The notes under the pieces: generated by a model
The model's input: only the letters and a program-made list of their open reading frames with translations
Told to the model about the DNA's origin: nothing
Databases searched by the model: none
Translations under genes and position numbers: made by a program
Shown: positions 9,401 to 41,840 of the stretch, piece by piece
Layout of the letters: each line of letters starts with the position of its first letter
How positions within the stretch are numbered: the first letter of the stretch is position 1
DNA from: a virus
Taxonomy: Duplodnaviria > Caudoviricetes
Length of the DNA stretch: 64,000 nucleotides
Reading direction: 5' to 3' (one strand)
IMG/VR virus record: IMGVR_UViG_3300037067_022526
Span: 32,001 to 96,000 of that record

Positions 9401-12400
9401 AAAATTACTTATGCCGGTGTATTGTGTGGGAAGTTGAAACTTACACTTGGACATAAGGTCTTAACAGAAAAGAATGGTGAAATTAAATACGTTCAAGCTC
9501 AGGAATTACAAGTGGGTGATTATCTTCTTACTCCTTGTGGTTATGATGCTGAAGGTGAATGGGAAAATGGATTAGTTGATGATTTTGCATATCTTGTAGG
9601 TGTATACGCAGCAGAAGGCTGTGGTATGCCGTATGAACACATATCAAATAGAGGAAGAATTATAAGTTATTATAAGGGCGTTAAATTTGCCATATCACAA
9701 GAAGAACAGAGTTTTTGTGATACCATTGTGGAAAAAATAAAGATACTTTATGGTGATTGTAAGATTTCTTTAGTACCGGATAAAAATTCTAAAAAATTAG
9801 AAATTCGAGTATATGGCAGATCAATTGCAGATGATTTAATAGGTATTTGTCCAGGCACATCGAGTGATGGCACAAAAAGAATAATTCCACACATTATAAA
9901 AAACTGGAATGCCCGTCAAATGGCATCTTTCGTTTCTGGATTTTATGATGGCGATGGCTGTTATCAAAATAATGCTCCCACAGTTGGACTGGGTGTTTGC
10001 AAGCGATTACTTGAACAAGTAGCTAATATACTTGACAGGTTAGGCATAGAATATACATTTGCGAAAAGAAGACCGACTGGATTGGGAAGACAACAAGTTT
10101 ATATTGTGAGTATTCCTCGACGAGAAATGCCAAAGTTTACACACTTGTCAGCCAAAAAGATCATCTGGAACTCATATAATCAGCATTTCCGCCGCAATTG
10201 GTCAATATTCAAAAAAGGCAAGTATGTATATAGAGCGATAATAAAAATAGAGCAATCTCCATATGATGGTGCTCTGTATGATATGGAAGTTGAGAATGAC
10301 CACTCATATGTGGTAAACAGGATAAGCGTATCCAATAGTCGCTTTCCCATGAATGGCTTCAAACTTGAATGTAAAGATCCTAAAATACTCAAGTTTTTCG
10401 AGCATAAAGCAGCTAAGCGCCTAAGCCTTAACGAAAACTGCAAAATGATATCCAGTGAATGTCACATGCTGGGCGATGTATTCATACACATGGACGTTGA
10501 ATGTCCAGTGTGCCAAGGTATTGGGGTTAACCCAGATTCCGGTGAAATTTGCAACCATCCCGGAGGTAACTTTAAAAAGATGCGCATACTCAATCCAGAT
10601 TGGATTGAAGTGCAACAAAACATTATGGCAGATGAGCCAAGTATAGTTTTCGTACCCGACGAAGAGCTTAAACGTATAGTATTCTATAAACAACCTAAAA
10701 ACATATATGACAGAATACCTAATGCAATTAAATCTCTGGTGTTACAAAACAAACCTATCCCATTAAGCAACAGAACAACATCGCATTTGAAATATATGCC
10801 TGTGCCTTATGGCACTTATGGCACATCACTGATCAGAAGATTGTTCACTACTCTAGCTTATAAGACTAAAATTATGACTGCTAACTGGATAGTCGCCGAG
10901 CGATTGATTCTGCCAGTTCGTGTTGTGCAAATAGGTAGCGATGATAGACCAGCAACAAGTGCTGACATAGCCGATGTCCAGCAGCAATTAGCTGCAACTG
11001 CTAATGACCCTAATTTAACCATTGTGACCCACCATAACTTCAAGTACGAGTGGTACGGCGCTTGTCATGATGATCAGACAGAAGTTCTAACTGATACTGG
11101 ATTCAAGACTTATGACCAAGTTGATATCACAAAAGACAAGATTTGTATATACAATCTAGAAGAAAATAAGACAGAATGTATATACGCCACAGATAAATAT
11201 GTCTACGACTATGATGGTGAGATGATCCATTTCCACAATAGAAGACTAGATATATTAGTTACTCCAAATCATAAAATGCTATATCGATGGAGTAATAAAG
11301 ATTCATGGAAAACTGAGGAAGCATCTGAACTAAAATGTTCTACCAGATTGCTTGGAGCAGCAAAATTTGAGGGGTTTATTAAATCTGGTGGATCTATTTA
11401 TGCAAAAGAGGATAAGTATTACGTAAGAATAGGTGACAGCAGTATTGAATTGAGCAAATTCTGTAAATTTATTGGATATTACCTGTCAGAAGGAACATTG
11501 AATAACAAAAAGAGTAATTATCATGTAGCAATTTACCAGAATACCTCTAAAGAGTGCTTCTCTGATATCGAAGACACTATGAGTGATATGGGGTTCCATG
11601 TTACTGAGTATGCGGATAATCGAAATCCTGATGATTGCAGATTTATTATATCAAATAAGGAATTGGTAACATTTATTAATGAGCATTTTAAACATGGTTC
11701 ATTGAATAAAACCATTCCTAATTGGATTAAAAATTTGCCGCGGAATTATTTAAAGTTGATATTTAATTCTATGATTAATGGTGATGGATATAGGCATCCA
11801 ACTGTTAATACTGAGAGCTTTACTTATACGACTGTTTCTAAGTCTTTGGCTGATGATATACAAGAAATTGCTTTTAAGTGCGGTTATTCTACCTGCATTC
11901 GTAAAGCAAAGAAACCTGATTATAAATCATTCGGTAAAAATACAATATACAGAGTCCACATAAGCATGGGTAAATTCTCTAATGGCAGTTATCCAATTGT
12001 ACGAGAAAAAGATATTACCAGAGTTCCATATAAAGGTAAAGTATGGTGTTTCACAGTTCCTACTGGATTCTTTGTGACTCGCCGTAATGGTAAAATCACT
12101 ATCCAGGGTAACAGCGGCAAAATATTGCAAATAACTCAGGAAATGGAGTATATAGGTAAAGAAATACTCGACGGATTTATGCTAAACCAGTCACTACTGA
12201 ATGGGGAGATGTGTATTCCCGAAACTGACAAGATGTTAACAAAATCTGGATTAAAAAATCTTAATCAAATAGACAAAGATGATGAGATTGCGACATTCAA
12301 TAAAGAAACAGGGATGTTGGAATATCAAAAACCAACCGAGATTCATGTATACGACTGGAATGATGATCTGATTCATTTCCGGACCGATCGTATTGATTTT

Positions 12401-31700: not shown

Positions 31701-32878
31701 TGCGAAAAAATTCATCAATAATTTTAAGAATTAGCCAAGAAGATAACTTGCTATTAGATGTTAAATCTAAAATACTTAAAACTAATAAGTCCCAACTGTT
31801 GTTAAATGGGGCATTTAATTATTGGAATGGTAGCGATAAAGAGTGGTCAGATAAGTTGCTTAAACTATACCAAGAGAGTGATACAAATAAATCCCACATA
31901 GTTAATATGGTATTCGCATACTATCGCAGAACAGGGTATCCTCACCGCAAATTATCTAATCAGGATATGATTAAAATTATGCACACTTTATCTTCCACTA
32001 AGAATCCACTGATAGGTAATGACCATTTGCAGACCAACAATGTGGGTATACCCGTAGCTAGTTGTTTCCACCCTCATATGATGAAAGTGCGATGCCTATC
32101 CAGGTATTTGTCTCCCTCAGAATTATATAATAACGACGAAAAGTTTAAAGACGCCATCAATCGTTGTTTTGAATTGGGTAACAAACCAAACGAAGCGAAT
32201 ATTCGCCGTATCCTCCGCACTCGTGACGGTGTCCGTAGTGCAGTTAATTTTAAGCCAGTTATAGCTAAATATATTTATCAGAACTATGCCCCCACCGGAG
32301 GTAAGGTCCTCGACCCTTGCGCTGGCTACGGTGGCAGACTAACCGGACTTATCTCTACTAATAAAAACCTTCTCTATCACGGTATAGACCCCTGCCCAGA
32401 GACCACAGTGGGTAACACCCAACTAGCAGCCTTCTATTCCCGCCTATACGAACCCATAACTAAAGAATTGCAGTGGAAGTTTAGGTTTCGTCACGATTTA
32501 GGTTGCGCAGAGGATGTCTTGCCCACTTTGCCAGATAAAGAATATGATTTGGTCTTTACTTCGCCACCTTATTTTAATGTAGAACAATATGACACTTTGC
32601 CTAATCAGAGCTACCTCAGATATCCTGATTATGAGTCCTGGCGGGATAAATTCTTATCTGTTTTAATCAAAGAATCTTGCCGGGTCTCCAAGCAGTATGT
32701 AGTATTAAATGTTAAAAACTATAAGAGCTATCCGATAGCAGACGATGCTCTAAAGTTTGCGGAGCAAATGGGATATGGAATACATAAGACTTACCAAATG
32801 AGATTAGCCAATAGCGAATTTCACAGAAGAGAGAGTGAACCGACATATCATGTTGAACCTATTTATGTGTTGTTGTGA
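31697..32878 (+). CDS. Amino-DNA methyltransferase (N4-C or N6-A) with possible N-terminal RHH-like segment
   Basis: Motif I VLDPCAGYGG and motif IV FTSPPYF. Confidence 0.85.
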   Translation: MMRKNSSIILRISQEDNLLLDVKSKILKTNKSQLLLNGAFNYWNGSDKEWSDKLLKLYQESDTNKSHIVNMVFAYYRRTGYPHRKLSNQDMIKIMHTLSSTKNPLIGNDHLQTNNVGIPVASCFHPHMMKVRCLSRYLSPSELYNNDEKFKDAINRCFELGNKPNEANIRRILRTRDGVRSAVNFKPVIAKYIYQNYAPTGGKVLDPCAGYGGRLTGLISTNKNLLYHGIDPCPETTVGNTQLAAFYSRLYEPITKELQWKFRFRHDLGCAEDVLPTLPDKEYDLVFTSPPYFNVEQYDTLPNQSYLRYPDYESWRDKFLSVLIKESCRVSKQYVVLNVKNYKSYPIADDALKFAEQMGYGIHKTYQMRLANSEFHRRESEPTYHVEPIYVLL

Positions 32879-33239
32879 TTCACTCCCCTCCCCTTCATAG
32901 AGGAGAATCACCGATAATTGGGTGTTACCCACTACGGTTTCGTTGCAATTCACTCCCCTTTTCAGGGGAGAAACACCGTGGCATAAGGAGAAACAGCAGT
33001 GGCAAAGGTTGCAATTCACTCCCCTTTTCAGGGGAGAAACACCATTGGCGCATTGTTCTGTTGCCATGTCGTTGTTGCAATTCACTCCCCTTTTCAGGGG
33101 AGAAACACCCATCGAGTGATGTAGCGGTGAAAGCGTCGGTTGCAATTCACTCCCCTTTTCAGGGGAGAAACACCTTTATCTTTGCTGCTGCGTGGCCGTG
33201 GCCGTTGCAATTCACTCCCCTTTTCAGGGGAGAAACACC
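32872..33239 (-). CRISPR. CRISPR array 1: five identical 36-bp repeats plus one degenerate terminal repeat, five spacers of 29-30 bp
   Basis: + strand repeat GTTGCAATTCACTCCCCTTTTCAGGGGAGAAACACC at 32942, 33008, 33074, 33139, 33204; degenerate copy 32872-32912. Confidence 0.97.
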
Positions 33240-33350
33240 CGAGCACTCATAACTTGATATAATTCAGCACCTTATGAGTATTCAGGGTCACAAATTTTGA
33301 GTCGCCCAATTCACTTTTCAAAGAACACTTCCCATTTTCTACGAATTCTC
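33240..33350 (-). promoter_or_regulatory. CRISPR leader 1
   Basis: Near-duplicate of 36162-36275; contains the inverted repeat ACTCATAA/TTATGAGT. Confidence 0.75.
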
Positions 33351-33380
33351 AGTATATTGTACTTGCTCTGCTGCTAAAAG

Positions 33381-35687
33381 TCAAATCAATTCTTCCATGT
33401 ATCCCAAAAATTCAGTATCGTATTTTCCTGACCACACACACATTCCAGGTATTTTTTCATAGGGTTTAGTATAGTTTAAAATCGTTTTAATATTGCCTTC
33501 GAAAATTTGTACACTATTTCTAACTATATCTGTCGATGTTGGATATTCGATATTATCTATGTTTTCTGGTTTAACTATAACAGTTATTTTATTATTAGGT
33601 ATAACCTGATAAATGTCACCAACATCTTTCATGTATTTTTTTTGTTCAAAGCTCATTAAGCTCCCGATTGTAACAACTTTGTTATTTAAATTGCCAACTA
33701 CATTAAGATTGCCTATTTCATCTTCCATTGCTTCTGCGCAATGTTCTGGTCCTATTTTTCCGAGAGCGTAATATTCTCGAAAAATTTTTGCTCCATCTCT
33801 GAATTCTTTGTTTTCAGTAAAATCATCTAAATCTAACTCGAAAACGTATAGTGTGGAATCATTAAAGACATTATCTCGATTGATTCGACCAGCCAATTGC
33901 AAAGCACTATTTAAATTGCAGTTTTCTCTGAAACCATTTCTGAAAGAAATGTTTATTCCAGATTCTATGCACGATGTTGCAATTAATATGAAATTCTCAT
34001 CGGAACTTAATCGTGATTTGATATCTTCTAATATGACCTCTCGATCTGTAGCACAAAGTGCTGTGGACATGTGTAATACATGTTCACGCCCAATTATCTT
34101 TGATATTGTTTTTGCAACCAATGCTGCGTTTTTGACAGTGTTAAAAACCGCTACTACCGGACCTTTGCTGCGCTCATTTATAACAGCATTACAAATTTGG
34201 GGTAAAGATAGTTTATTCCAATGCCCGTTATCTTGTATGCCGCCTAATTGCTTTATTGTAACTCTGGATTTTTCTTGTTTAAGAGTTATCTCTGAAATCT
34301 CTGGTGGAACTATAGATGGGACATTATAATCAAAACCATCTAAGACATATTTTCTAAATCGCTTGATTTCCCAAGGCTTCGTCATAGACCCAGACACAAA
34401 CAGTACTCGGCATCCCATATTTTCAACTAACCATTTTAAGTAATATAATGTAAGTGGCCACAATTTTGAGGGCAGGCAACAATGAGACTCGTCAAAAATA
34501 ATGAATTTACCGGCTAAATTGAGATACTTTCTAAGCTTTTTAGGTGTGTATCCAGCCAAAGTTTCACAAAATTGTACTGCGGTTGTGCAGGTAATTGGAC
34601 AATTCCATGTCTGTGTATAAAGTTTTGCGGATAGATCATGTTCAAAATCTACTCCAAGATGATGCTCTGCAACGGTTAATTTATCATCTTCTTCGGGCAA
34701 AACAATTGCTTTTCTATAAGTGTCTGCAGTTTGGCTAATAATATTAGTATAAGGTGCAACATAAATTATACCTGACATATTATTAGTATTAACAGTATGT
34801 AAAGCATATGCCAAAGATGATAAAGTTTTGCCATTACCAACTTCACTAGCAAGATATGTAAATGATGCGGAAATTTCTGAATGTCTACACGATTGATATA
34901 TAGCTTGCCTTATTTTGTTCCTCTCGGTTTCTGCTGAAAAGCTACTAACATATTTATCTAGTTGTAGTAATCTTTCATTTGCTTTTATTGGGATTGTGTC
35001 TTCTACTATGAAGTTCTTGTAATTTTTAGCAGTGTCATAGTAGTCTGCTGTTACGAGTACGCTTAATGCTAATCTTGATAGTGGAGCACTAATATTCTTG
35101 TTATAATTCATTCCGCTTTTCAGAGGAGAAACACTTAGGGGTTCAACTAAATTTATTTCTTTTTTATGAAGTTCCATTAGCTTGTCTAATTTTGCATCGA
35201 CATATTCGCTCATGAGCATGTCTGTTTCTTTTACCCACGGACATCTTTCCCCTAGTAAATTATTATCTCGAAGGTCATCGTATAGATTTTTTTGGTATCC
35301 GAGATGATGAGCGAAAACAAGCCATGCTGCGTACCTATATTGATCTGATAAAGACATGTTCCCGTTTTGTGCTGCCTTGTCACATTGACTTATCAGATAA
35401 GACACACCGGCATCAACATGATTTGGCATTTTACAATTTAATACTTTACCACTTAAAACCATTTGACAATAAGGATCAAGCTTCCCTGTGTCATGGTACA
35501 AAATTGCGGTTAATAAATGACATTTTAGAAAATTATAATGATCTTCTGATATGAATGATTTTAATTTTTCTATTTCTTGCTCTGCTTTTAAGTATACACC
35601 AGATATATGATCAATAAAAGATTGTTCTGGAATGTTTCTTTCCAAATCTGCTGAATGGGCTAAGTTACAATTCACTCTACTTTTCAT
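33381..35687 (-). CDS. cas3: Cas3 HD nuclease-helicase
   Basis: AHS...H...YHDTGK HD domain; VGNGKT; IFDESH; ATSCIESGINI; QLAGRINR. Confidence 0.93.
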   Translation of the reverse strand: MKSRVNCNLAHSADLERNIPEQSFIDHISGVYLKAEQEIEKLKSFISEDHYNFLKCHLLTAILYHDTGKLDPYCQMVLSGKVLNCKMPNHVDAGVSYLISQCDKAAQNGNMSLSDQYRYAAWLVFAHHLGYQKNLYDDLRDNNLLGERCPWVKETDMLMSEYVDAKLDKLMELHKKEINLVEPLSVSPLKSGMNYNKNISAPLSRLALSVLVTADYYDTAKNYKNFIVEDTIPIKANERLLQLDKYVSSFSAETERNKIRQAIYQSCRHSEISASFTYLASEVGNGKTLSSLAYALHTVNTNNMSGIIYVAPYTNIISQTADTYRKAIVLPEEDDKLTVAEHHLGVDFEHDLSAKLYTQTWNCPITCTTAVQFCETLAGYTPKKLRKYLNLAGKFIIFDESHCCLPSKLWPLTLYYLKWLVENMGCRVLFVSGSMTKPWEIKRFRKYVLDGFDYNVPSIVPPEISEITLKQEKSRVTIKQLGGIQDNGHWNKLSLPQICNAVINERSKGPVVAVFNTVKNAALVAKTISKIIGREHVLHMSTALCATDREVILEDIKSRLSSDENFILIATSCIESGINISFRNGFRENCNLNSALQLAGRINRDNVFNDSTLYVFELDLDDFTENKEFRDGAKIFREYYALGKIGPEHCAEAMEDEIGNLNVVGNLNNKVVTIGSLMSFEQKKYMKDVGDIYQVIPNNKITVIVKPENIDNIEYPTSTDIVRNSVQIFEGNIKTILNYTKPYEKIPGMCVWSGKYDTEFLGYMEELI

Positions 35688-36161
35688 GGAAGAAACACCT
35701 CAATAGTAAGACTTTCAGTTGTAATTCACTCCACTTTTCAAAAGGGGAGAAACACCACGCCCGCCGATCTTTCCGCCGTCGGTTCCGTTACAATTCACTC
35801 TCTTTTTTCAGGAGAGAAACATCAAGTGTCAGCGTCATGTTGCAAGTCTTTCAAAAAATTAGTTGTAATTCACTCCCCCTTTCGGGGGAGAAACACCTCG
35901 TGATTTATGTTACCTATGCACTCGGCGGTTGCAATTCACTCCCCCTTTCGGGGGAGAAACACCTATACCCGAGTGGGGTACAGAAGTTGGCGTGTTGCAA
36001 TTCACTCCCCCTTTCGGGGGAGAAACACCCCCGCTCGTATAACATACCGTAACTGCCAGGTTGCAATTCACTCCCCCTTTCGGGGGAGAAACACCCGTCC
36101 TGAGAATCAAGCAATGCTAGGTCTAGTTGCAATTCACTCCCCCTTTCGGGGGAGAAACACC
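35664..36161 (-). CRISPR. CRISPR array 2: five canonical and three degenerate repeats
   Basis: GTTGCAATTCACTCCCCCTTTCGGGGGAGAAACACC at 35928, 35994, 36060, 36126 (one-base variant at 35862); degenerate copies at 35664, 35718, 35787. Confidence 0.95.
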
Positions 36162-36275
36162 CGAGCACTCATAACTTGGTATAATTCAACACTTTATGAG
36201 TGTTTAGGGTCACAAATTTTGAGATATTTGGTTTACTTTTCAAAGAACGCCTCTCGTTTTTTGCGAATTCTAGCT
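36162..36275 (-). promoter_or_regulatory. CRISPR leader 2
   Basis: Homologous to leader 1; IHF-like ATTCAACACTTTA. Confidence 0.7.
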
Positions 36276-37250
36276 CAGATCATGTACTTCAAAACTGAAT
36301 CCACATTCCGCAGCATTGGGTACATTGTAATCACTTAGACATATTGGTTTGTCGTTTTTTGCAGTAGGCTTAAGATTATTTATAAATTCAGTTTCTTTGA
36401 AACTTCCAATAGTATTAGAATGGTCTGCCCACCAAACATGTTGTAAATTCATCGAACCCGATGGACGTGCACACGAAGACGATGTTTCGAAAATATGTGG
36501 TAGTATTTTCTTAAGAATATCAATATCTTCTTGGGCAGCATTGGTCAGATGGGCACAATGCGGGTTGACGGAAATTAGTTGATAATACATGCCGTGACGA
36601 ATAAATTTTAGCGCATTTGGACCTATATCTCCAGAAGGATCTTTATCTTTGATCGTTCTTCCTGTATCTGTTGCCAGATGATCTGCGCTTAATGGCGACT
36701 TTTTTGTAACACTTGCCTCGATAATTTCCACTGGCGCAATTGAACACCCGACACCAATCGAAACACATCCAGTACGAACAAATCGAGGTTCTTCTTTCTT
36801 TTCCTTCTCTAGCCCATCTGGTAGAGCTGTTGTTCCGAAAATCCTGACATCAAAATATCGATTTAAAAAGGCTTCAGGGTCAGACTTGGCTAGCGCCATT
36901 GCTTTTCTGGCACATTCAAGCTCTGATGTTCCAGCGTACCCTTTGTTGCGGCTTTCAAATACATACAATCGTTCAGGGTCAAGATTGTCTCTCTTTACAA
37001 AATCCTTGAAAACCGGATTATCATGATCGGACAAGAAATCCCTGATCTTCCTTTTAATAGACATTGGTGATACCCACCCATATCCATCTGGAAATGTGCG
37101 TGGAGCATTTCCTACATCCGGGTCTCCGTTGGGATTTCCACAAATTACTTCATACACTAGCATTCCAACACTGCGATTCAATTGATACATTTTTTTCTCC
37201 AAAGTTGAATTTTCTGTTACGATCGTTTCTGATTTAATTGACTTATTCAT
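36270..37250 (-). CDS. cas7: Cas7 (Csd2, type I-C)
   Basis: GNPNGDPD...NAPR, SIKRKIRD, YFDVRIFG; start moved to ATG 37250 behind a GGAG RBS. Confidence 0.93.
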   Translation of the reverse strand: MNKSIKSETIVTENSTLEKKMYQLNRSVGMLVYEVICGNPNGDPDVGNAPRTFPDGYGWVSPMSIKRKIRDFLSDHDNPVFKDFVKRDNLDPERLYVFESRNKGYAGTSELECARKAMALAKSDPEAFLNRYFDVRIFGTTALPDGLEKEKKEEPRFVRTGCVSIGVGCSIAPVEIIEASVTKKSPLSADHLATDTGRTIKDKDPSGDIGPNALKFIRHGMYYQLISVNPHCAHLTNAAQEDIDILKKILPHIFETSSSCARPSGSMNLQHVWWADHSNTIGSFKETEFINNLKPTAKNDKPICLSDYNVPNAAECGFSFEVHDLS

Positions 37251-37716
37251 TGTTTTCTCCATTCGGATTTTCCACAGACACTTTTTCAAGATCAACACCG
37301 ATCTCTGACTTGACTGATTTTGGCGACCTATAAGCATATCCCATTTCCAGGAGTATTTTATAAATATCAGGATCAAACTCATTAAATTGGTTAACGCTCT
37401 TAAATTGATTATTATGTAAATCAGGCATTATATTCATAAGTTTACTAATTATTTCTTTATATTCTCTGATTGGCAAATAACCATGTTTATATGGCTCTTT
37501 TTCTTTGCGAATATAATTTTCTGCCCAACATTCGTACTTAGAAAAGTTTCCTATAAATGTTCCTAGCGCTCGTTTTGGAAATTTATATGCTTGCTGTATA
37601 TATTCTTGTCCGATAAGCTTTTGAGGTTCATTTATCCCTCTACTCTTAAAATATATTCGGTGAATATTGTTTGCTTGACTAAATAATTGTCCCATTAAAA
37701 ACGGCACACTGTTCAT
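37243..37716 (-). CDS. cas11: Cas11c, translated internally in frame from cas8c
   Basis: Internal AAGGAG-N6-ATG just before NSVPFLMGQLF, the arrangement known for type I-C. Confidence 0.65.
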   Translation of the reverse strand: MNSVPFLMGQLFSQANNIHRIYFKSRGINEPQKLIGQEYIQQAYKFPKRALGTFIGNFSKYECWAENYIRKEKEPYKHGYLPIREYKEIISKLMNIMPDLHNNQFKSVNQFNEFDPDIYKILLEMGYAYRSPKSVKSEIGVDLEKVSVENPNGENNE

Positions 37717-39186
37717 GATCATCTCCTTTGTAAAACCATTTTTACTCAAAACAATCCCCGAAATTGGCACCAGCCATTGCCGTTCATACGGCATTTTTTC
37801 TAATTTACCATCAGAACACTCAATTAGCATTTTGGTATGATTTTTTGCAAATATGCGAGTAACTTTTTTAATTGCTTTTTCGTTTTCGAAAAAGAAGTCG
37901 TATATATCTGAAATTGTTATATACTCTCGCTCTATAATAGATGATATTTTATTACGATCATTTTTCCATATTTTATTAATACATTTAGAAAAATTAGAAA
38001 TAGTTGGCGGGAGAAATTTGCCTTTGCAAACAAATTTAGACGGACGAGTTGATGTTCCGGATACCCATTTGTTTACACAATTAGCAATATTTTTTCCATT
38101 CATTTCTTTATGATATTTAATTTGACACGCACCATTTTTGGGTATAAATAGGACAAAAATTGAACATTGAAATGGTGTTTTATTAATCTCACCGTTTAAC
38201 ATGTGAACAATCTTTTTGCCCTCTGCCTCCCATTGTTCAATATCCATTTGGTTGGATTCTTCTGTTCGACCCTCAATCCAGTCAGATGAAGGTGATAGAG
38301 TAGTAATAACCAAATCTCTTCCGTTGTCTTTTTGGATATAATACCAGAGACCATTTCGAGTGCCTTCTTTTCCTAAATTGTTATAATAAAAATTCTCAGA
38401 TACAATAGAATTGATGATTTTCAGTATTTGTTTGCGAGTAGAATTTCCGATTTTGCACGCATTTACACCAGACATGCCAAATCGTTCATAGCATTCATTA
38501 TCCTCATTTTTAGAATAAAGTTTTATTGTGCCGACGCCGCAAGGGAGCTTGGTTTCAAATGTTTTTGATTTATTTTCCCACCCATCGGCAGGATTGTTGA
38601 GTATGTCGATATCGATAGATGAGTTTGTTTGTTTAGAAATAAGCCAATCATTCACCACCTTCATTGACTCACTATTTTGAACCTTATTGGAAAATTTTAA
38701 TTGTTTCCAATCTGGAATGTCTAGAGAAAAATAACAACTTTTGATCTTTTTATCTTGTTGTGAAATAAAGTCATCTAATTTGTTCATTAAAGCATTTGGA
38801 TCAATTCGAGATAATCTATTGGATAATTCTTTGAAAGCACAAAACCTATCTTGATCATCTATATGTTTAGATATATCGGAATGGCAATATAAATGATGTT
38901 TAATTCCATTCAGTCTTTTCTTAGAATCTTTATTAGTGTCATATTTGAAAGTAAATCCAGATGCAAAATTAGAGTATTTAAAATATCTAAGATCGGAAGC
39001 AGACTCAGACTCAAAAGGTTCGATAGCGATATCAAGATTCTTATCAATTAATATAAGAAAACGTTGACCGTTATTATTTTTGGGCATTTGTGGATGCCAC
39101 GTTGTATCGTTTGTGTTTGATAAATCCCCAATATTCAGACCCCAGCTTTTTAAACTTTCTTCAATTGATAATATTTCATGCAACAT
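37243..39186 (-). CDS. cas8c: Divergent Cas8c large subunit
   Basis: Position between cas5 and cas7; 647 aa; C-terminal PFLMGQLFS helical domain. Confidence 0.7.
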   Translation of the reverse strand: MLHEILSIEESLKSWGLNIGDLSNTNDTTWHPQMPKNNNGQRFLILIDKNLDIAIEPFESESASDLRYFKYSNFASGFTFKYDTNKDSKKRLNGIKHHLYCHSDISKHIDDQDRFCAFKELSNRLSRIDPNALMNKLDDFISQQDKKIKSCYFSLDIPDWKQLKFSNKVQNSESMKVVNDWLISKQTNSSIDIDILNNPADGWENKSKTFETKLPCGVGTIKLYSKNEDNECYERFGMSGVNACKIGNSTRKQILKIINSIVSENFYYNNLGKEGTRNGLWYYIQKDNGRDLVITTLSPSSDWIEGRTEESNQMDIEQWEAEGKKIVHMLNGEINKTPFQCSIFVLFIPKNGACQIKYHKEMNGKNIANCVNKWVSGTSTRPSKFVCKGKFLPPTISNFSKCINKIWKNDRNKISSIIEREYITISDIYDFFFENEKAIKKVTRIFAKNHTKMLIECSDGKLEKMPYERQWLVPISGIVLSKNGFTKEMIMNSVPFLMGQLFSQANNIHRIYFKSRGINEPQKLIGQEYIQQAYKFPKRALGTFIGNFSKYECWAENYIRKEKEPYKHGYLPIREYKEIISKLMNIMPDLHNNQFKSVNQFNEFDPDIYKILLEMGYAYRSPKSVKSEIGVDLEKVSVENPNGENNE

Positions 39187-39203
39187 TTTTAATCTCCATT
39201 TAA

Positions 39204-39887
39204 TTATTTATTTAAATTTTCGTTTTCAAACTTTAGAATTCCATTGGCTGCGATTACTTTCTCGGGACCAAGTTGTAAAATTCCATGAGCGATTCGCAAA
39301 GTTTCTGTTATTGGAAATTGCATAATATATCCATTTTTTTTGTCAAAATATTGTAGGACATATCCGTGTAAAATTTCATTATAATCAGAAATTATGGGAG
39401 TTATAGGTAATCCGACATAATCAGAAAAAAAGTCGCTCGGACCAAGTGTCGGCATTCGATAATATTGTTCTTTACTTAATCGACGATAAAATTGATCGCG
39501 ATATGAATGGGCACAATTAATATGTGCGTATTTTGGGTGAGGTGGTTCTACGGTAGACCTTTTGGCGGTTGCACAAATTTGAAATCTAGGGCGAAGCAAA
39601 GCTGTAGCTTTTATTTGACATGCATTTCCATCTCTTTTCTGTCCTTCTTTTCGAATTGATGACCACGAATTAAAAGCATAATCTAAATATTCTGGTCGGT
39701 GACATATCCCGATAGCTTCTATTTGTATGGATGCACTTTTAACTCTTAAAATTGACTGCATTATACCAAATGCCGCAGTGGGCGTAGGAACTGGATAACT
39801 ACATGGTTCTGATCCGCTATCAGGTCTGGCGAACATGCCTATGGGTCCGCCAACCTCGAATATGATTCCGTAAGATTTCTGGTACAT
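39204..39887 (-). CDS. cas5: Cas5 (Cas5d-like, type I-C)
   Basis: FEVGGPIGMFARPD...SYPVPTPTAAFGIMQSI; AAGGAG RBS before ATG 39887. Confidence 0.9.
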   Translation of the reverse strand: MYQKSYGIIFEVGGPIGMFARPDSGSEPCSYPVPTPTAAFGIMQSILRVKSASIQIEAIGICHRPEYLDYAFNSWSSIRKEGQKRDGNACQIKATALLRPRFQICATAKRSTVEPPHPKYAHINCAHSYRDQFYRRLSKEQYYRMPTLGPSDFFSDYVGLPITPIISDYNEILHGYVLQYFDKKNGYIMQFPITETLRIAHGILQLGPEKVIAANGILKFENENLNK

Positions 39888-39906
39888 TCTGAATCTCCTT
39901 TCAAAC

Positions 39907-39935
39907 AATTATAACCTTAGCGTGATGGGAAGTCA
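39907..39935 (-). promoter_or_regulatory. sigma70-type promoter of the cas operon
   Basis: TTGACT-N17-TATAAT on the minus strand. Confidence 0.8.
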
Positions 39936-39973
39936 AGCGAGAGATATTAGATTTTTTAAAAATATTCGTGGCC

Positions 39974-40002
39974 TTGACAATTTACGTAGCAGGCAATATA
40001 AT
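39974..40002 (+). promoter_or_regulatory. Consensus sigma70 promoter, divergent from the cas promoter
   Basis: TTGACA-N17-TATAAT. Confidence 0.85.
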
Positions 40003-40011
40003 GGATTGTAA

Positions 40012-40046
40012 GATGTTTCTCCCCTAAAAAGGGAGTGAATTGCAAC
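40012..40046 (+). repeat. Solitary CRISPR repeat
   Basis: GATGTTTCTCCCCTAAAAAGGGAGTGAATTGCAAC, in crRNA-sense orientation. Confidence 0.9.
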
Positions 40047-40068
40047 GTGATGATGTCGAGGAAATCAG

Positions 40069-40353
40069 ATGTGGAATTTGACAGAACACGCAAAACCGGT
40101 CACCGGAGAAGAATCTTTAGTAATTTATACTTGTCCGCAATTTCTTGAGGACGAACATCCTGGTATATATTACATACACGAAGCATACTGTATACACAAT
40201 GGTTTCTGTCGTTATTACCCGGATGAAGGTTGGTTCTGTGGGGATAATAAAATGCCAGAACCCGTAGCGTGGATCCGTCCCGAAAAATTGTTAGAGTATT
40301 TTTTGACGCAACTACCCAGCAAAGATCAGTCAGCTACAACACCTTTCAGATAA
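40069..40353 (+). CDS. Hypothetical protein, paralog of 45268..45519
   Basis: MWNLTEHAKPV...WFCGD.KMPEP.AW.RPEKLLE shared with the paralog. Confidence 0.75.
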   Translation: MWNLTEHAKPVTGEESLVIYTCPQFLEDEHPGIYYIHEAYCIHNGFCRYYPDEGWFCGDNKMPEPVAWIRPEKLLEYFLTQLPSKDQSATTPFR

Positions 40354-41252
40354 TCAGATATCGCAGTCCTGATGATATCTACGTAAGAAATTTCACAGTC
40401 ATTTTCATATGCTTGCTTGCGGGCAACTCTTTTTAATTGTTCTAATTGATCACTCAAAATTCGGATGCTGATTGTGATATTCTCAACGACATTTTGAAAT
40501 TTCGACCCAAATTCACATCCGAAATCGCCATCAGACATATGTTGGTTTTCTTGCCGCAGCATCTCTTCGGTATAATCGGTATTCACTTCCCATGTGGGTA
40601 GTTGGCATATCAACCTGTAATCAGGTGCAGTTGAAATTAAATTATATAATAAATCGCCTTTGCGCCTTGGTGACGAGACTATAATAGTTCGTGATTCATG
40701 CACTCCGTCATGTTTGAAGTCGGCAGTGCTGGGAATCAATGCATTATAAATTCTATCACCCGACTGCCCTGGAAATGACGCGATCTCATTGAATACAAGA
40801 GTGAAATATCGCTTGCCCAGGAGATTTGAACTATTGGCGTGAGCAACCATTAAACAAATGTATCCTGATCGATTCCGCCTTGGCAACCAAATTTTGTTCT
40901 GCTCTATTTTGGTTATCTCATCTCGAAAATACTCAGATCGAGTAACAAGCAGTTTCAACTCCGTGAAGAAAGATCTTGCCTCCTCTGCACTATTACAAAC
41001 AGCAAGCTGATAAATCGTGTCCTGGTTTGGGATATTATAATATTCAAACGGATTTGGTATTTCTAATAGTCGCCGTGTCTCTGCCAGTAGCAGCAGTGTA
41101 GCAAGATAATCCTTTCCGCTACGTCTTCCCAAAACGGCAACTAACTCTCGGTATTGTCCAATATAGAAGTTGGACATGATTTCTTTTAACCTCGGATATA
41201 ACTTAATGTTAGGTGTAATTAAATATTGCTCGATAAATTCCATTGAAGTCAT
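40326..41252 (-). CDS. Terminase large-subunit ATPase-like domain fused to a C-terminal ribbon-helix-helix
   Basis: GRRSGKD Walker A; LVFNEIASF Walker B variant; IVSSP motif III; LPTWEVN; EFGSKF; then TISIRI...YVDIIRTAISDYL; start ATG 41252 behind AAGGAG. Confidence 0.75.
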   Translation of the reverse strand: MTSMEFIEQYLITPNIKLYPRLKEIMSNFYIGQYRELVAVLGRRSGKDYLATLLLLAETRRLLEIPNPFEYYNIPNQDTIYQLAVCNSAEEARSFFTELKLLVTRSEYFRDEITKIEQNKIWLPRRNRSGYICLMVAHANSSNLLGKRYFTLVFNEIASFPGQSGDRIYNALIPSTADFKHDGVHESRTIIVSSPRRKGDLLYNLISTAPDYRLICQLPTWEVNTDYTEEMLRQENQHMSDGDFGCEFGSKFQNVVENITISIRILSDQLEQLKRVARKQAYENDCEISYVDIIRTAISDYLKGVVAD

Positions 41253-41357
41253 AAAAAGCTCCTTTCTACTAATACTTACTTCGCTGTCATAATTATTTCC
41301 TGTAAGAATTATGACAAAATTTACCACATAATACATTATACAGCGCAGGAGATGTGG

Positions 41358-41583
41358 AATGTTTCTTCAATGAAGTGAATTGCAACTTGACAACTCCCAC
41401 AGCCAGCAGTATAATGAGCCGTAAGATGTTTCTCTTTTGAAAAGAGGAGTGAATTACACAACATGGTAGTGTGGATTTTACTCATCAATGCCATACTTTG
41501 TGCATTATTCTTCTTTTTCGGCGTTTTCTGCGGATGGAGTTTAAGCTCGGATATAGATGTTTCTCCCCTGAAAAGGGGAGTGA
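41358..41583 (+). repeat. Cluster of three degenerate CRISPR repeats with an embedded promoter
   Basis: Copies at 41358-41386, 41425-41462 and 41556-41583. Confidence 0.8.
41387..41415 (+). promoter_or_regulatory. Consensus sigma70 promoter
   Basis: TTGACA-N17-TATAAT. Confidence 0.85.
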
Positions 41584-41840
41584 TAAAAAATCATATTGCT
41601 GCCGGACAGAAGGGTGCAGAGCTTTTGCGTAATAAATTTGGACTTATTAATATAGAAACCAGATCGGAAAGATACCCCGAGTCCCAAAGTATATCTCCGC
41701 AAAAGGCCCTAGATTTATTAAATGTATCTTGTGTTTGGATATCCAAACCATCTCTTAATGTTGTCATAGAGACATCGACAGGGAATTACCGAGTGAGATT
41801 CAGTGAATTTGACCGATACTTTTTATGCGGAGACAAATAA
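41463..41840 (+). CDS. Hypothetical protein with N-terminal transmembrane helix
   Basis: Hydrophobic N-terminus; RBS supplied by a repeat; contains a repeat fragment. Confidence 0.5.
   Translation: MVVWILLINAILCALFFFFGVFCGWSLSSDIDVSPLKRGVIKNHIAAGQKGAELLRNKFGLINIETRSERYPESQSISPQKALDLLNVSCVWISKPSLNVVIETSTGNYRVRFSEFDRYFLCGDK

Follow-up and report, generated by a model that had tools for sequence, protein, structure and literature searches.

Degenerate terminal repeats occur at the trailer end of clustered regularly interspaced short palindromic repeat (CRISPR) arrays; we describe here a phage locus in which such a repeat contains the start of the cas3 gene. The DNA analysed is a stretch of 64,000 nucleotides (nt; hereafter the window), bases 32001-96000 of the virus record IMGVR_UViG_3300037067_022526, which is 137,762 bp long, has inverted terminal repeats and is estimated to be 100% complete. 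Among described systems, the closest are the interference-only type I-C variants of large phages (Al-Shayeb et al. 2020, PMC7162821). To the extent that the relevant parts of that paper describe them, those variants share with the system of the window that it is phage-borne, that its Cas5 is Cas5d-like, that Cas6, cas1, cas2 and cas4 are absent and that the arrays are compact; moreover, Cas5 active-site residues unlike those of canonical Cas5d are noted for those variants (PMC7162821). Unlike the variants as presented in those parts, however, the phage studied here has a true HD-helicase Cas3, encoded behind an array and with a start made from the terminal repeat. The repeat origin of the cas3 Shine-Dalgarno (SD) sequence, start codon and first eight codons is a real, unusual and non-random layout, and it means that a CRISPR repeat can become the ribosome-binding site, start codon and first codons of a gene. 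A literature search found no paper on a cas gene start built from a CRISPR repeat.

Qi and colleagues reportedly used, in 2012, engineered Csy4/Cas6f hairpins to cut operon transcripts into separately expressed units. As in that design, a repeat hairpin upstream of cas3 would free the mRNA of the gene after cleavage; unlike the synthetic design, the arrangement here is natural, and its processing is something that we infer. A second parallel is offered by the CreR/CreA-type CRISPR RNA (crRNA)-like RNAs found near cas3 or cas operons, which are guides acting in trans with partial complementarity to a promoter (Shmakov et al. 2023, PMC10120712; bioRxiv 10.1101/2023.03.10.532045). The likeness is that of a repeat-derived sequence near cas3 that is proposed to tune Cas expression, whereas the last repeat of the array, R8, would act in cis, as a translation start. 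No spacer with partial complementarity to a promoter beside a protospacer-adjacent motif (PAM), as expected of CreR/CreA, was found. The survey that assembled those RNAs discarded repeat-like matches overlapping open reading frames (ORFs) (PMC10120712). Pipelines that drop such matches, or that mask arrays, would miss or mis-start genes such as the one described here.

Array 2, with which we are mainly concerned, lies on the minus strand between cas7 and cas3. Its five intact 36-nt repeats, R1-R5, are separated by 30-nt spacers (35862-36161) and are followed by the degenerate repeats R6 (35787-35824), in which the stem is kept through a compensatory change (-6.1 kcal/mol), and R7 (35718-35756), the last unit with a hairpin (-8.1 kcal/mol); then come a last spacer of only 18 nt (35700-35717) and R8 (35664-35699), a terminal repeat with no hairpin. 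R8 is thus the eighth unit of the array, in series with R1-R7, and agrees with the repeat consensus of array 1 at 31 of its 36 bases (15 of 18 in its 3' half). The number of 31/36 matches to be expected in the window is about 1e-9 by a binomial estimate, and 18-mers with at least 14/18 repeat matches occur about 0.1 times per shuffled 20-kb sequence. The ATG of the cas3 ORF (35687-33381) occupies repeat positions 13-15 (35687-35685). Upstream of it, the SD sequence GAGGTG (35701-35696) takes its GGTG from repeat positions 1-4 and its GA from the 18-nt spacer, and the distance from GAGG to ATG (10 nt) is near the spacing at cas5 and at the ORF starting at 40069. R8 ends at 35664, after codon 8 of cas3 (MKSRVNCN), and the alignment to 11 homologues starts at the very next codons, L-A-H-S; the homologues have two to five residues before AHS and the phage Cas3 has nine. 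A preliminary description of this DNA, the reading of which at the cas3 start agrees exactly with the minus strand, had proposed that the terminal repeat supplies most of the SD sequence, the ATG and the codons just before the conserved AHS. This stands for four of the six SD bases, the ATG and codons 1-8; the leucine preceding AHS, however, is not repeat-encoded.

The substitutions in R8 are few and fall at telling places. Mismatches to the consensus lie at positions 10, 13, 21, 22 and 33; none of them touches the stem base or the cleavage site, and four (10, 13, 21 and 22) are in the stem arms. One of these, C13A, converts CTG to ATG, and together the four stem-arm substitutions remove the hairpin, so that the earlier proposal that the changes in R8 both create the ATG and weaken the stem holds in full. 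The predicted folding energy of R8 is -1.2 kcal/mol, worse than that of its own shuffles, against -13.7 to -17.3 kcal/mol for intact repeats. An in-frame TGA contributed by the last spacer (35702-35700) closes the cas3 frame upstream, which makes ATG 35687 the first possible start; the only alternative before AHS is GTG 35675 (35675-35673), and both lie within R8. A long-range pairing that would hide the spacer between SD and AUG, formed by the 5' part of R8 and codons 14-18 (35647-35634), was also considered; it was dropped because the 99 nt concerned fold no more stably than their shuffles (z = -0.09).

As at other degenerate array ends, R6-R8 represent the decayed old end of array 2, the trailer of which is irregular (unit spacings of 73, 68 and 57 nt, with a handle remnant at 35852-35839). 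The last repeat of array 1 (32912-32872) is likewise degenerate. In contrast to R8, however, which has lost its hairpin and presents a working-looking SD sequence and ATG to the next gene, it still folds into a strong hairpin (-15.1 kcal/mol). The intact repeats of array 2 have a C-G loop-closing pair; the T-A type is found in array 1 (32942-33239), in R6-R8 and in a repeat copy internal to cas3. Being common to array 1 and all the degenerate units, the T-A type indicates that the array 2 trailer keeps the older form of the repeat. Array 1, downstream of cas3 on the minus strand (32872-33384), consists of five intact repeats and the degenerate one, preceded by leader 1 and a promoter-like site (33384-33356). 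Leader 2 (36162-36269, minus strand) is a duplicate of leader 1 minus the TTGACT-17-TACAAT promoter of the latter: the duplication starts at about 36272/33350 and does not include the promoter. The oldest spacer of array 1 (32913-32941, minus strand) matches an adjacent methyltransferase-like gene (32399-32427, plus strand) at 24 of 29 positions, with a CCA flank and not the usual I-C TTC PAM.

How exceptional the layout is can be judged from 82 related loci, 78 of them with a Cas7 match. Both Cas3 and the repeat were searched in viral contigs, phage GenBank records and genome contigs; the nearest Cas3 relative is 44% identical, and no second array with the repeat of this phage was found in any of the three collections, a single Acinetobacter match being at chance level. 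In 73 of the 78 loci cas7 directly abuts cas3 upstream. Besides the phage of the window, only two loci, L015 and L018 (the latter from a 527-kb viral contig), have a leader and an array between the two genes. The three belong to a single phage clade of eight members (99% support by the Shimodaira-Hasegawa-like approximate likelihood ratio test, in a quick tree), so that the phage-specific layout, with cas3 presumably at the tail of the precursor crRNA (pre-crRNA) transcript, is that of three of the eight. The other five have cas7 next to cas3 and no adaptation genes nearby. The leader-array module is mobile within the clade: in L009 it precedes cas5, in L011 and L012 it comes after cas3, and the leaders share a motif. 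That array 2 is simply a recent insertion was a view we softened, since within the phage clade three gains and three losses of the layout with an array between cas7 and cas3 are about equally parsimonious on the quick tree.

In the comparison of cas3 5' ends that had been suggested for related phages, L015 and L018 share the array placed before cas3, but there the ATG follows an intact last repeat, which folds as well as the canonical one (in L015 through two compensatory pairs). The distance from the last repeat to the cas3 ATG is 38 nt in L015 and 18 nt in L018, gaps which leave no room for a separate cas3 promoter. In the window, no sigma-70-like site scoring at least 9/12 was found on the minus strand from leader 2 to the cas3 ATG, phage-specific promoters being outside the scan. 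Taken together, the position of the array between cas7 and cas3 and the short gaps in the relatives support co-transcription of cas3 with the pre-crRNA well, although indirectly, and the array-2 transcript very probably continues past seven repeats into cas3, as had been claimed. Most simply, cas3 would be the 3' end of a transcript comprising the cas operon and the pre-crRNA. None of the seven relatives in the clade has a recognizable SD sequence before cas3, and in L009, a 141-kb relative, a GC-rich hairpin with a T run, possibly an attenuator between cas7 and cas3, stands directly before the cas3 ATG (9955-10001). These features suggest that cas3 is generally expressed weakly from the cas7-cas3 junction.

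We propose the following account, which we think probable, although by no means assured, when it is taken as a whole. The leader-array module sits between two genes that abut in most relatives, from which it follows that a single transcript would run through cas5, cas8, cas7 and the pre-crRNA and would have cas3 at its 3' end. Transcription would begin at the cas promoter (39936-39908), and a weak promoter-like site within leader 2 might be a second origin. Cas5c enzymes, which are described as structure-dependent, cleave the repeat at the 3' base of its stem and leave an 11-nt 5' handle, the recognition by BhaCas5c being centred on the stem base and the three nucleotides 3' of the cut (PMC8524198). 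Cleavage of this kind at the hairpin-bearing repeats R1-R7, presumably by Cas5, would detach the cas3 mRNA. Its predicted 5' end would be the 11-nt handle of R7 (35728), giving a 5' untranslated region (UTR) of 41 nt, and translation would be initiated at AUG 35687 by ribosomes bound to GAGGUG (35701-35696). R8 owes this AUG to its substitutions, which also removed the hairpin; the site is thereby left single-stranded and probably escapes a cut that would separate codon 4 from codon 5. Losing the hairpin could therefore plausibly be of use in two ways, by opening the ribosome-binding site and by sparing R8 the cut. Under the proposal, and with the same degree of confidence, the decayed last repeat of array 2 would now serve as the translation-initiation region of cas3. 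It is plausible, moreover, that the translation of Cas3 is coupled to crRNA processing, and that Cas3 is perhaps kept low or delayed, as the preliminary description had suggested. If Cas5 processing does control the cas3 message, the locus would represent a natural, self-contained setting of the dose of the nuclease relative to that of the surveillance complex, and would bear on the safe use of CRISPR weapons by phages and on compact type I-C tools.

Several observations weigh against this account. Array 2 contains one terminator-like hairpin (35984-35962), although such calls are not enriched over shuffles, and a weak -10-like TACTAT in the last spacer, below the scan threshold, could drive a cas3-specific transcript. 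The positions of Cas5 that align with the Tyr/Lys/His triad are L, S and Y, so that the processing activity of the protein is a matter of conjecture; a histidine, His127, occurs in an N-x-A-H-S motif one residue from the triad position and is invariant in five clade members. This caveat bears equally on the feedback considered next. Finally, R8 retains the stem base and the UGA following the cleavage site, and hence Cas5 might still cut or bind it.

The last point opens the way to an active feedback, a sharper form of the coupling already envisaged. R8 would still be a site for Cas5 or Cascade: binding would cover codons 4-8, and a Cas5c-type cut, for which the predicted place is between 35675 and 35674, would sever the AUG from the ORF and break the GUG in two. 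Free Cas5 or Cascade would then repress Cas3, which would be made only from transcripts that escape. None of the five substitutions in R8 falls in positions 3-9 or 23-30, a core that takes in the stem base, the place of cleavage and the beginning of the handle; over nine degenerate units this core has 5 mismatches in 135 positions, against 51 in 189 elsewhere, and the U-G-A that follows the cut is the same in every one of 14 units. BhaCas5c recognizes chiefly the stem base and three nucleotides past the cut (PMC8524198), and a weakening of cas3 at this place would be in keeping with the junctions of the relatives, where an SD sequence is present in none of seven and L009 has its terminator hairpin. 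The partition into core and remainder, however, was chosen after the data had been seen, and for R8 alone the absence of all five substitutions from the core has a p of about 0.07 by our own calculation. Moreover, R8 has no stable stem, whereas Cas5c enzymes are structure-dependent (PMC8524198). We regard the feedback as unlikely, although it is the main rival of our account.

Alternatively, the repeat-derived start could be a neutral scar that recombination left at the old array end, with cas3 expressed from a promoter of its own in the trailer, of host type or phage-specific, in which case the transcription and processing of the array would be irrelevant to cas3. The irregular trailer, with its uneven spacings (73, 68 and 57 nt) and the remnant at 35852-35839, is what decaying array ends typically show, TACTAT precedes the cas3 ATG by 13 nt, and two more distant loci (L020 and L030) have AT-rich promoter-like stretches between array and cas3. 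But TACTAT has no matching -35 and is under the scan threshold, and in L018 and L015 the 18 and 38 nt between an intact repeat and the ATG leave no promoter room; we find the neutral origin improbable. More improbable still, in our estimation, is that translation starts at GTG 35675 (MNCNLAHS) and that the upstream ATG is incidental. The product would be nearer in length to the homologues, with their two to five residues before AHS, and the Cas3 of L015 begins with ATG-AAT (M-N), much as GTG-AAT would here. No SD-like sequence, however, lies at a suitable distance from the GTG, while the ATG is in frame, is the first after the stop and has GAGGTG upstream; ATG 35687 is thus probably the codon used. 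In any event, since the GTG is also repeat-encoded, its use would leave the core observation unchanged.

Units derived from the repeat are confined in the genome to 32872-41591 and include, beyond the two arrays, five copies. One is inside cas3 itself: 36 nt (35100-35135, minus strand; 30/36 matches), in frame, encode residues 185-196 (SVSPLKSGMNYN) in a variable loop of the HD domain, where the phage Cas3 has a 6-amino-acid insertion relative to the 11 homologues; the copy was not found in any relative examined. The other four are on the plus strand, two of them directly after 12/12 consensus promoters. In each of these two cassettes (39974-40046 and 41358-41591) a solitary repeat follows the promoter within about 10 nt, and an ORF comes next (ATG 40069 and ATG 41463, respectively). 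The first cassette and the cas promoter stand back to back; in the region of the second, a short-stem copy lies at 41358-41386 and a perfect hairpin with no handle at 41556-41583, inside the ORF starting at ATG 41463. Comparable arrangements occur in the relatives: in L015 (12504-12632) two repeats with a 23-nt spacer between them come after TTTACA-17-TATAAT, and in L009 (6062-6286) a promoter within a degenerate array tail is followed by four repeat-like units in the cas5 5' UTR. That such units give rise to guides acting in trans was rejected, as neither the degenerate spacers nor the sequences following solitary repeats have partial self-targets. Nowhere in the 138-kb genome do the three degenerate spacers match better than by chance (23/37, 18/30 and 14/18 at best), and the 23-nt spacer of the L015 mini-array has no target in its 15-kb locus.

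A broader hypothesis, in which the recognition core of the repeat would be a cis-acting RNA control, seems to us doubtful. Cas5 or Cascade would cut or cover the cas3 AUG, and the dose of Cas3 would be set after transcription by the balance between free Cascade and crRNA; the core would be reused behind two consensus promoters (40012 and 41425) and in the cas3 coding sequence (35135-35100), and in L018 and L015 the cas3 mRNA would be a 'last crRNA', with its 5' handle before the AUG. Reuse of the core, if real, would place several transcripts under the same control.

On the minus strand, the order of the locus is cas5-cas8-cas7-leader 2/array 2-cas3-leader 1/array 1. A cas operon promoter-like site detected by the promoter scan (TTGACT-17-TATAAT, 11/12; 39908-39936) precedes cas5 (39204-39887; ATG at 39887 with an AGGAG site), which encodes the Cas5d/Cas5c-like presumed pre-crRNA endonuclease (PF09704, E=2e-5; TIGR02593 above cut-off, TIGR01876 weak, type I-C Cas5 in PDB at E=3e-6). 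The large-subunit gene (37243-39186) is cas8c-like by position only: its 647-amino-acid product has no match in Pfam, NCBIfam or PHROGs, and the relatives carry a gene for 571-632 amino acids in the same slot. It is followed by cas7 (36270-37250), of Csd2 type (PF05107, E=7e-42; TIGR02589, E=1e-37, below the curated cut-off). Cas3 (33381-35687; 768 amino acids), an HD nuclease and helicase by profile matches and alignment, matches DEAD, Helicase_C and Cas3-like_C_2, with cas3_HD and cas3_core below their cut-offs, and its HD and helicase motif residues are invariant in the homologue alignment. The repeat has the features of type I-C, a stem of 6-7 bp and an 11-nt 3' handle ending in ATTG(A/C)AAC, at a length of 36 nt rather than about 32 and with spacers of 29-30 nt; the phage does not have the canonical I-C order, cas3-cas5-cas8c-cas7-cas4-cas1-cas2 with a downstream array. 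No match to Cas6, Cas1 or Cas2 was found in the complete phage genome, which points to an interference-only, divergent, type I-C-like system. The same phage is present in groundwater and landfill metagenomes: in three further contigs and two metagenome runs (groundwater, landfill) the locus is 100% identical to that of the window, and among them neither a form devoid of array 2 nor any spacer turnover was found. A search for RNA runs containing the locus gave none.

Two further elements of the window deserve mention. Between the promoter-repeat cassettes, on the minus strand (40326-41336), a 336-amino-acid ORF has a match to the large terminase (phrog_2, E=9e-11) that is confined to the ATPase part, and the ORF is far from any packaging genes seen in the window. 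On the plus strand, 15499-15717 matches the Rfam HEARO RNA at 94 bits, above the gathering score, which indicates an omega-RNA element associated with IscB/HNH.

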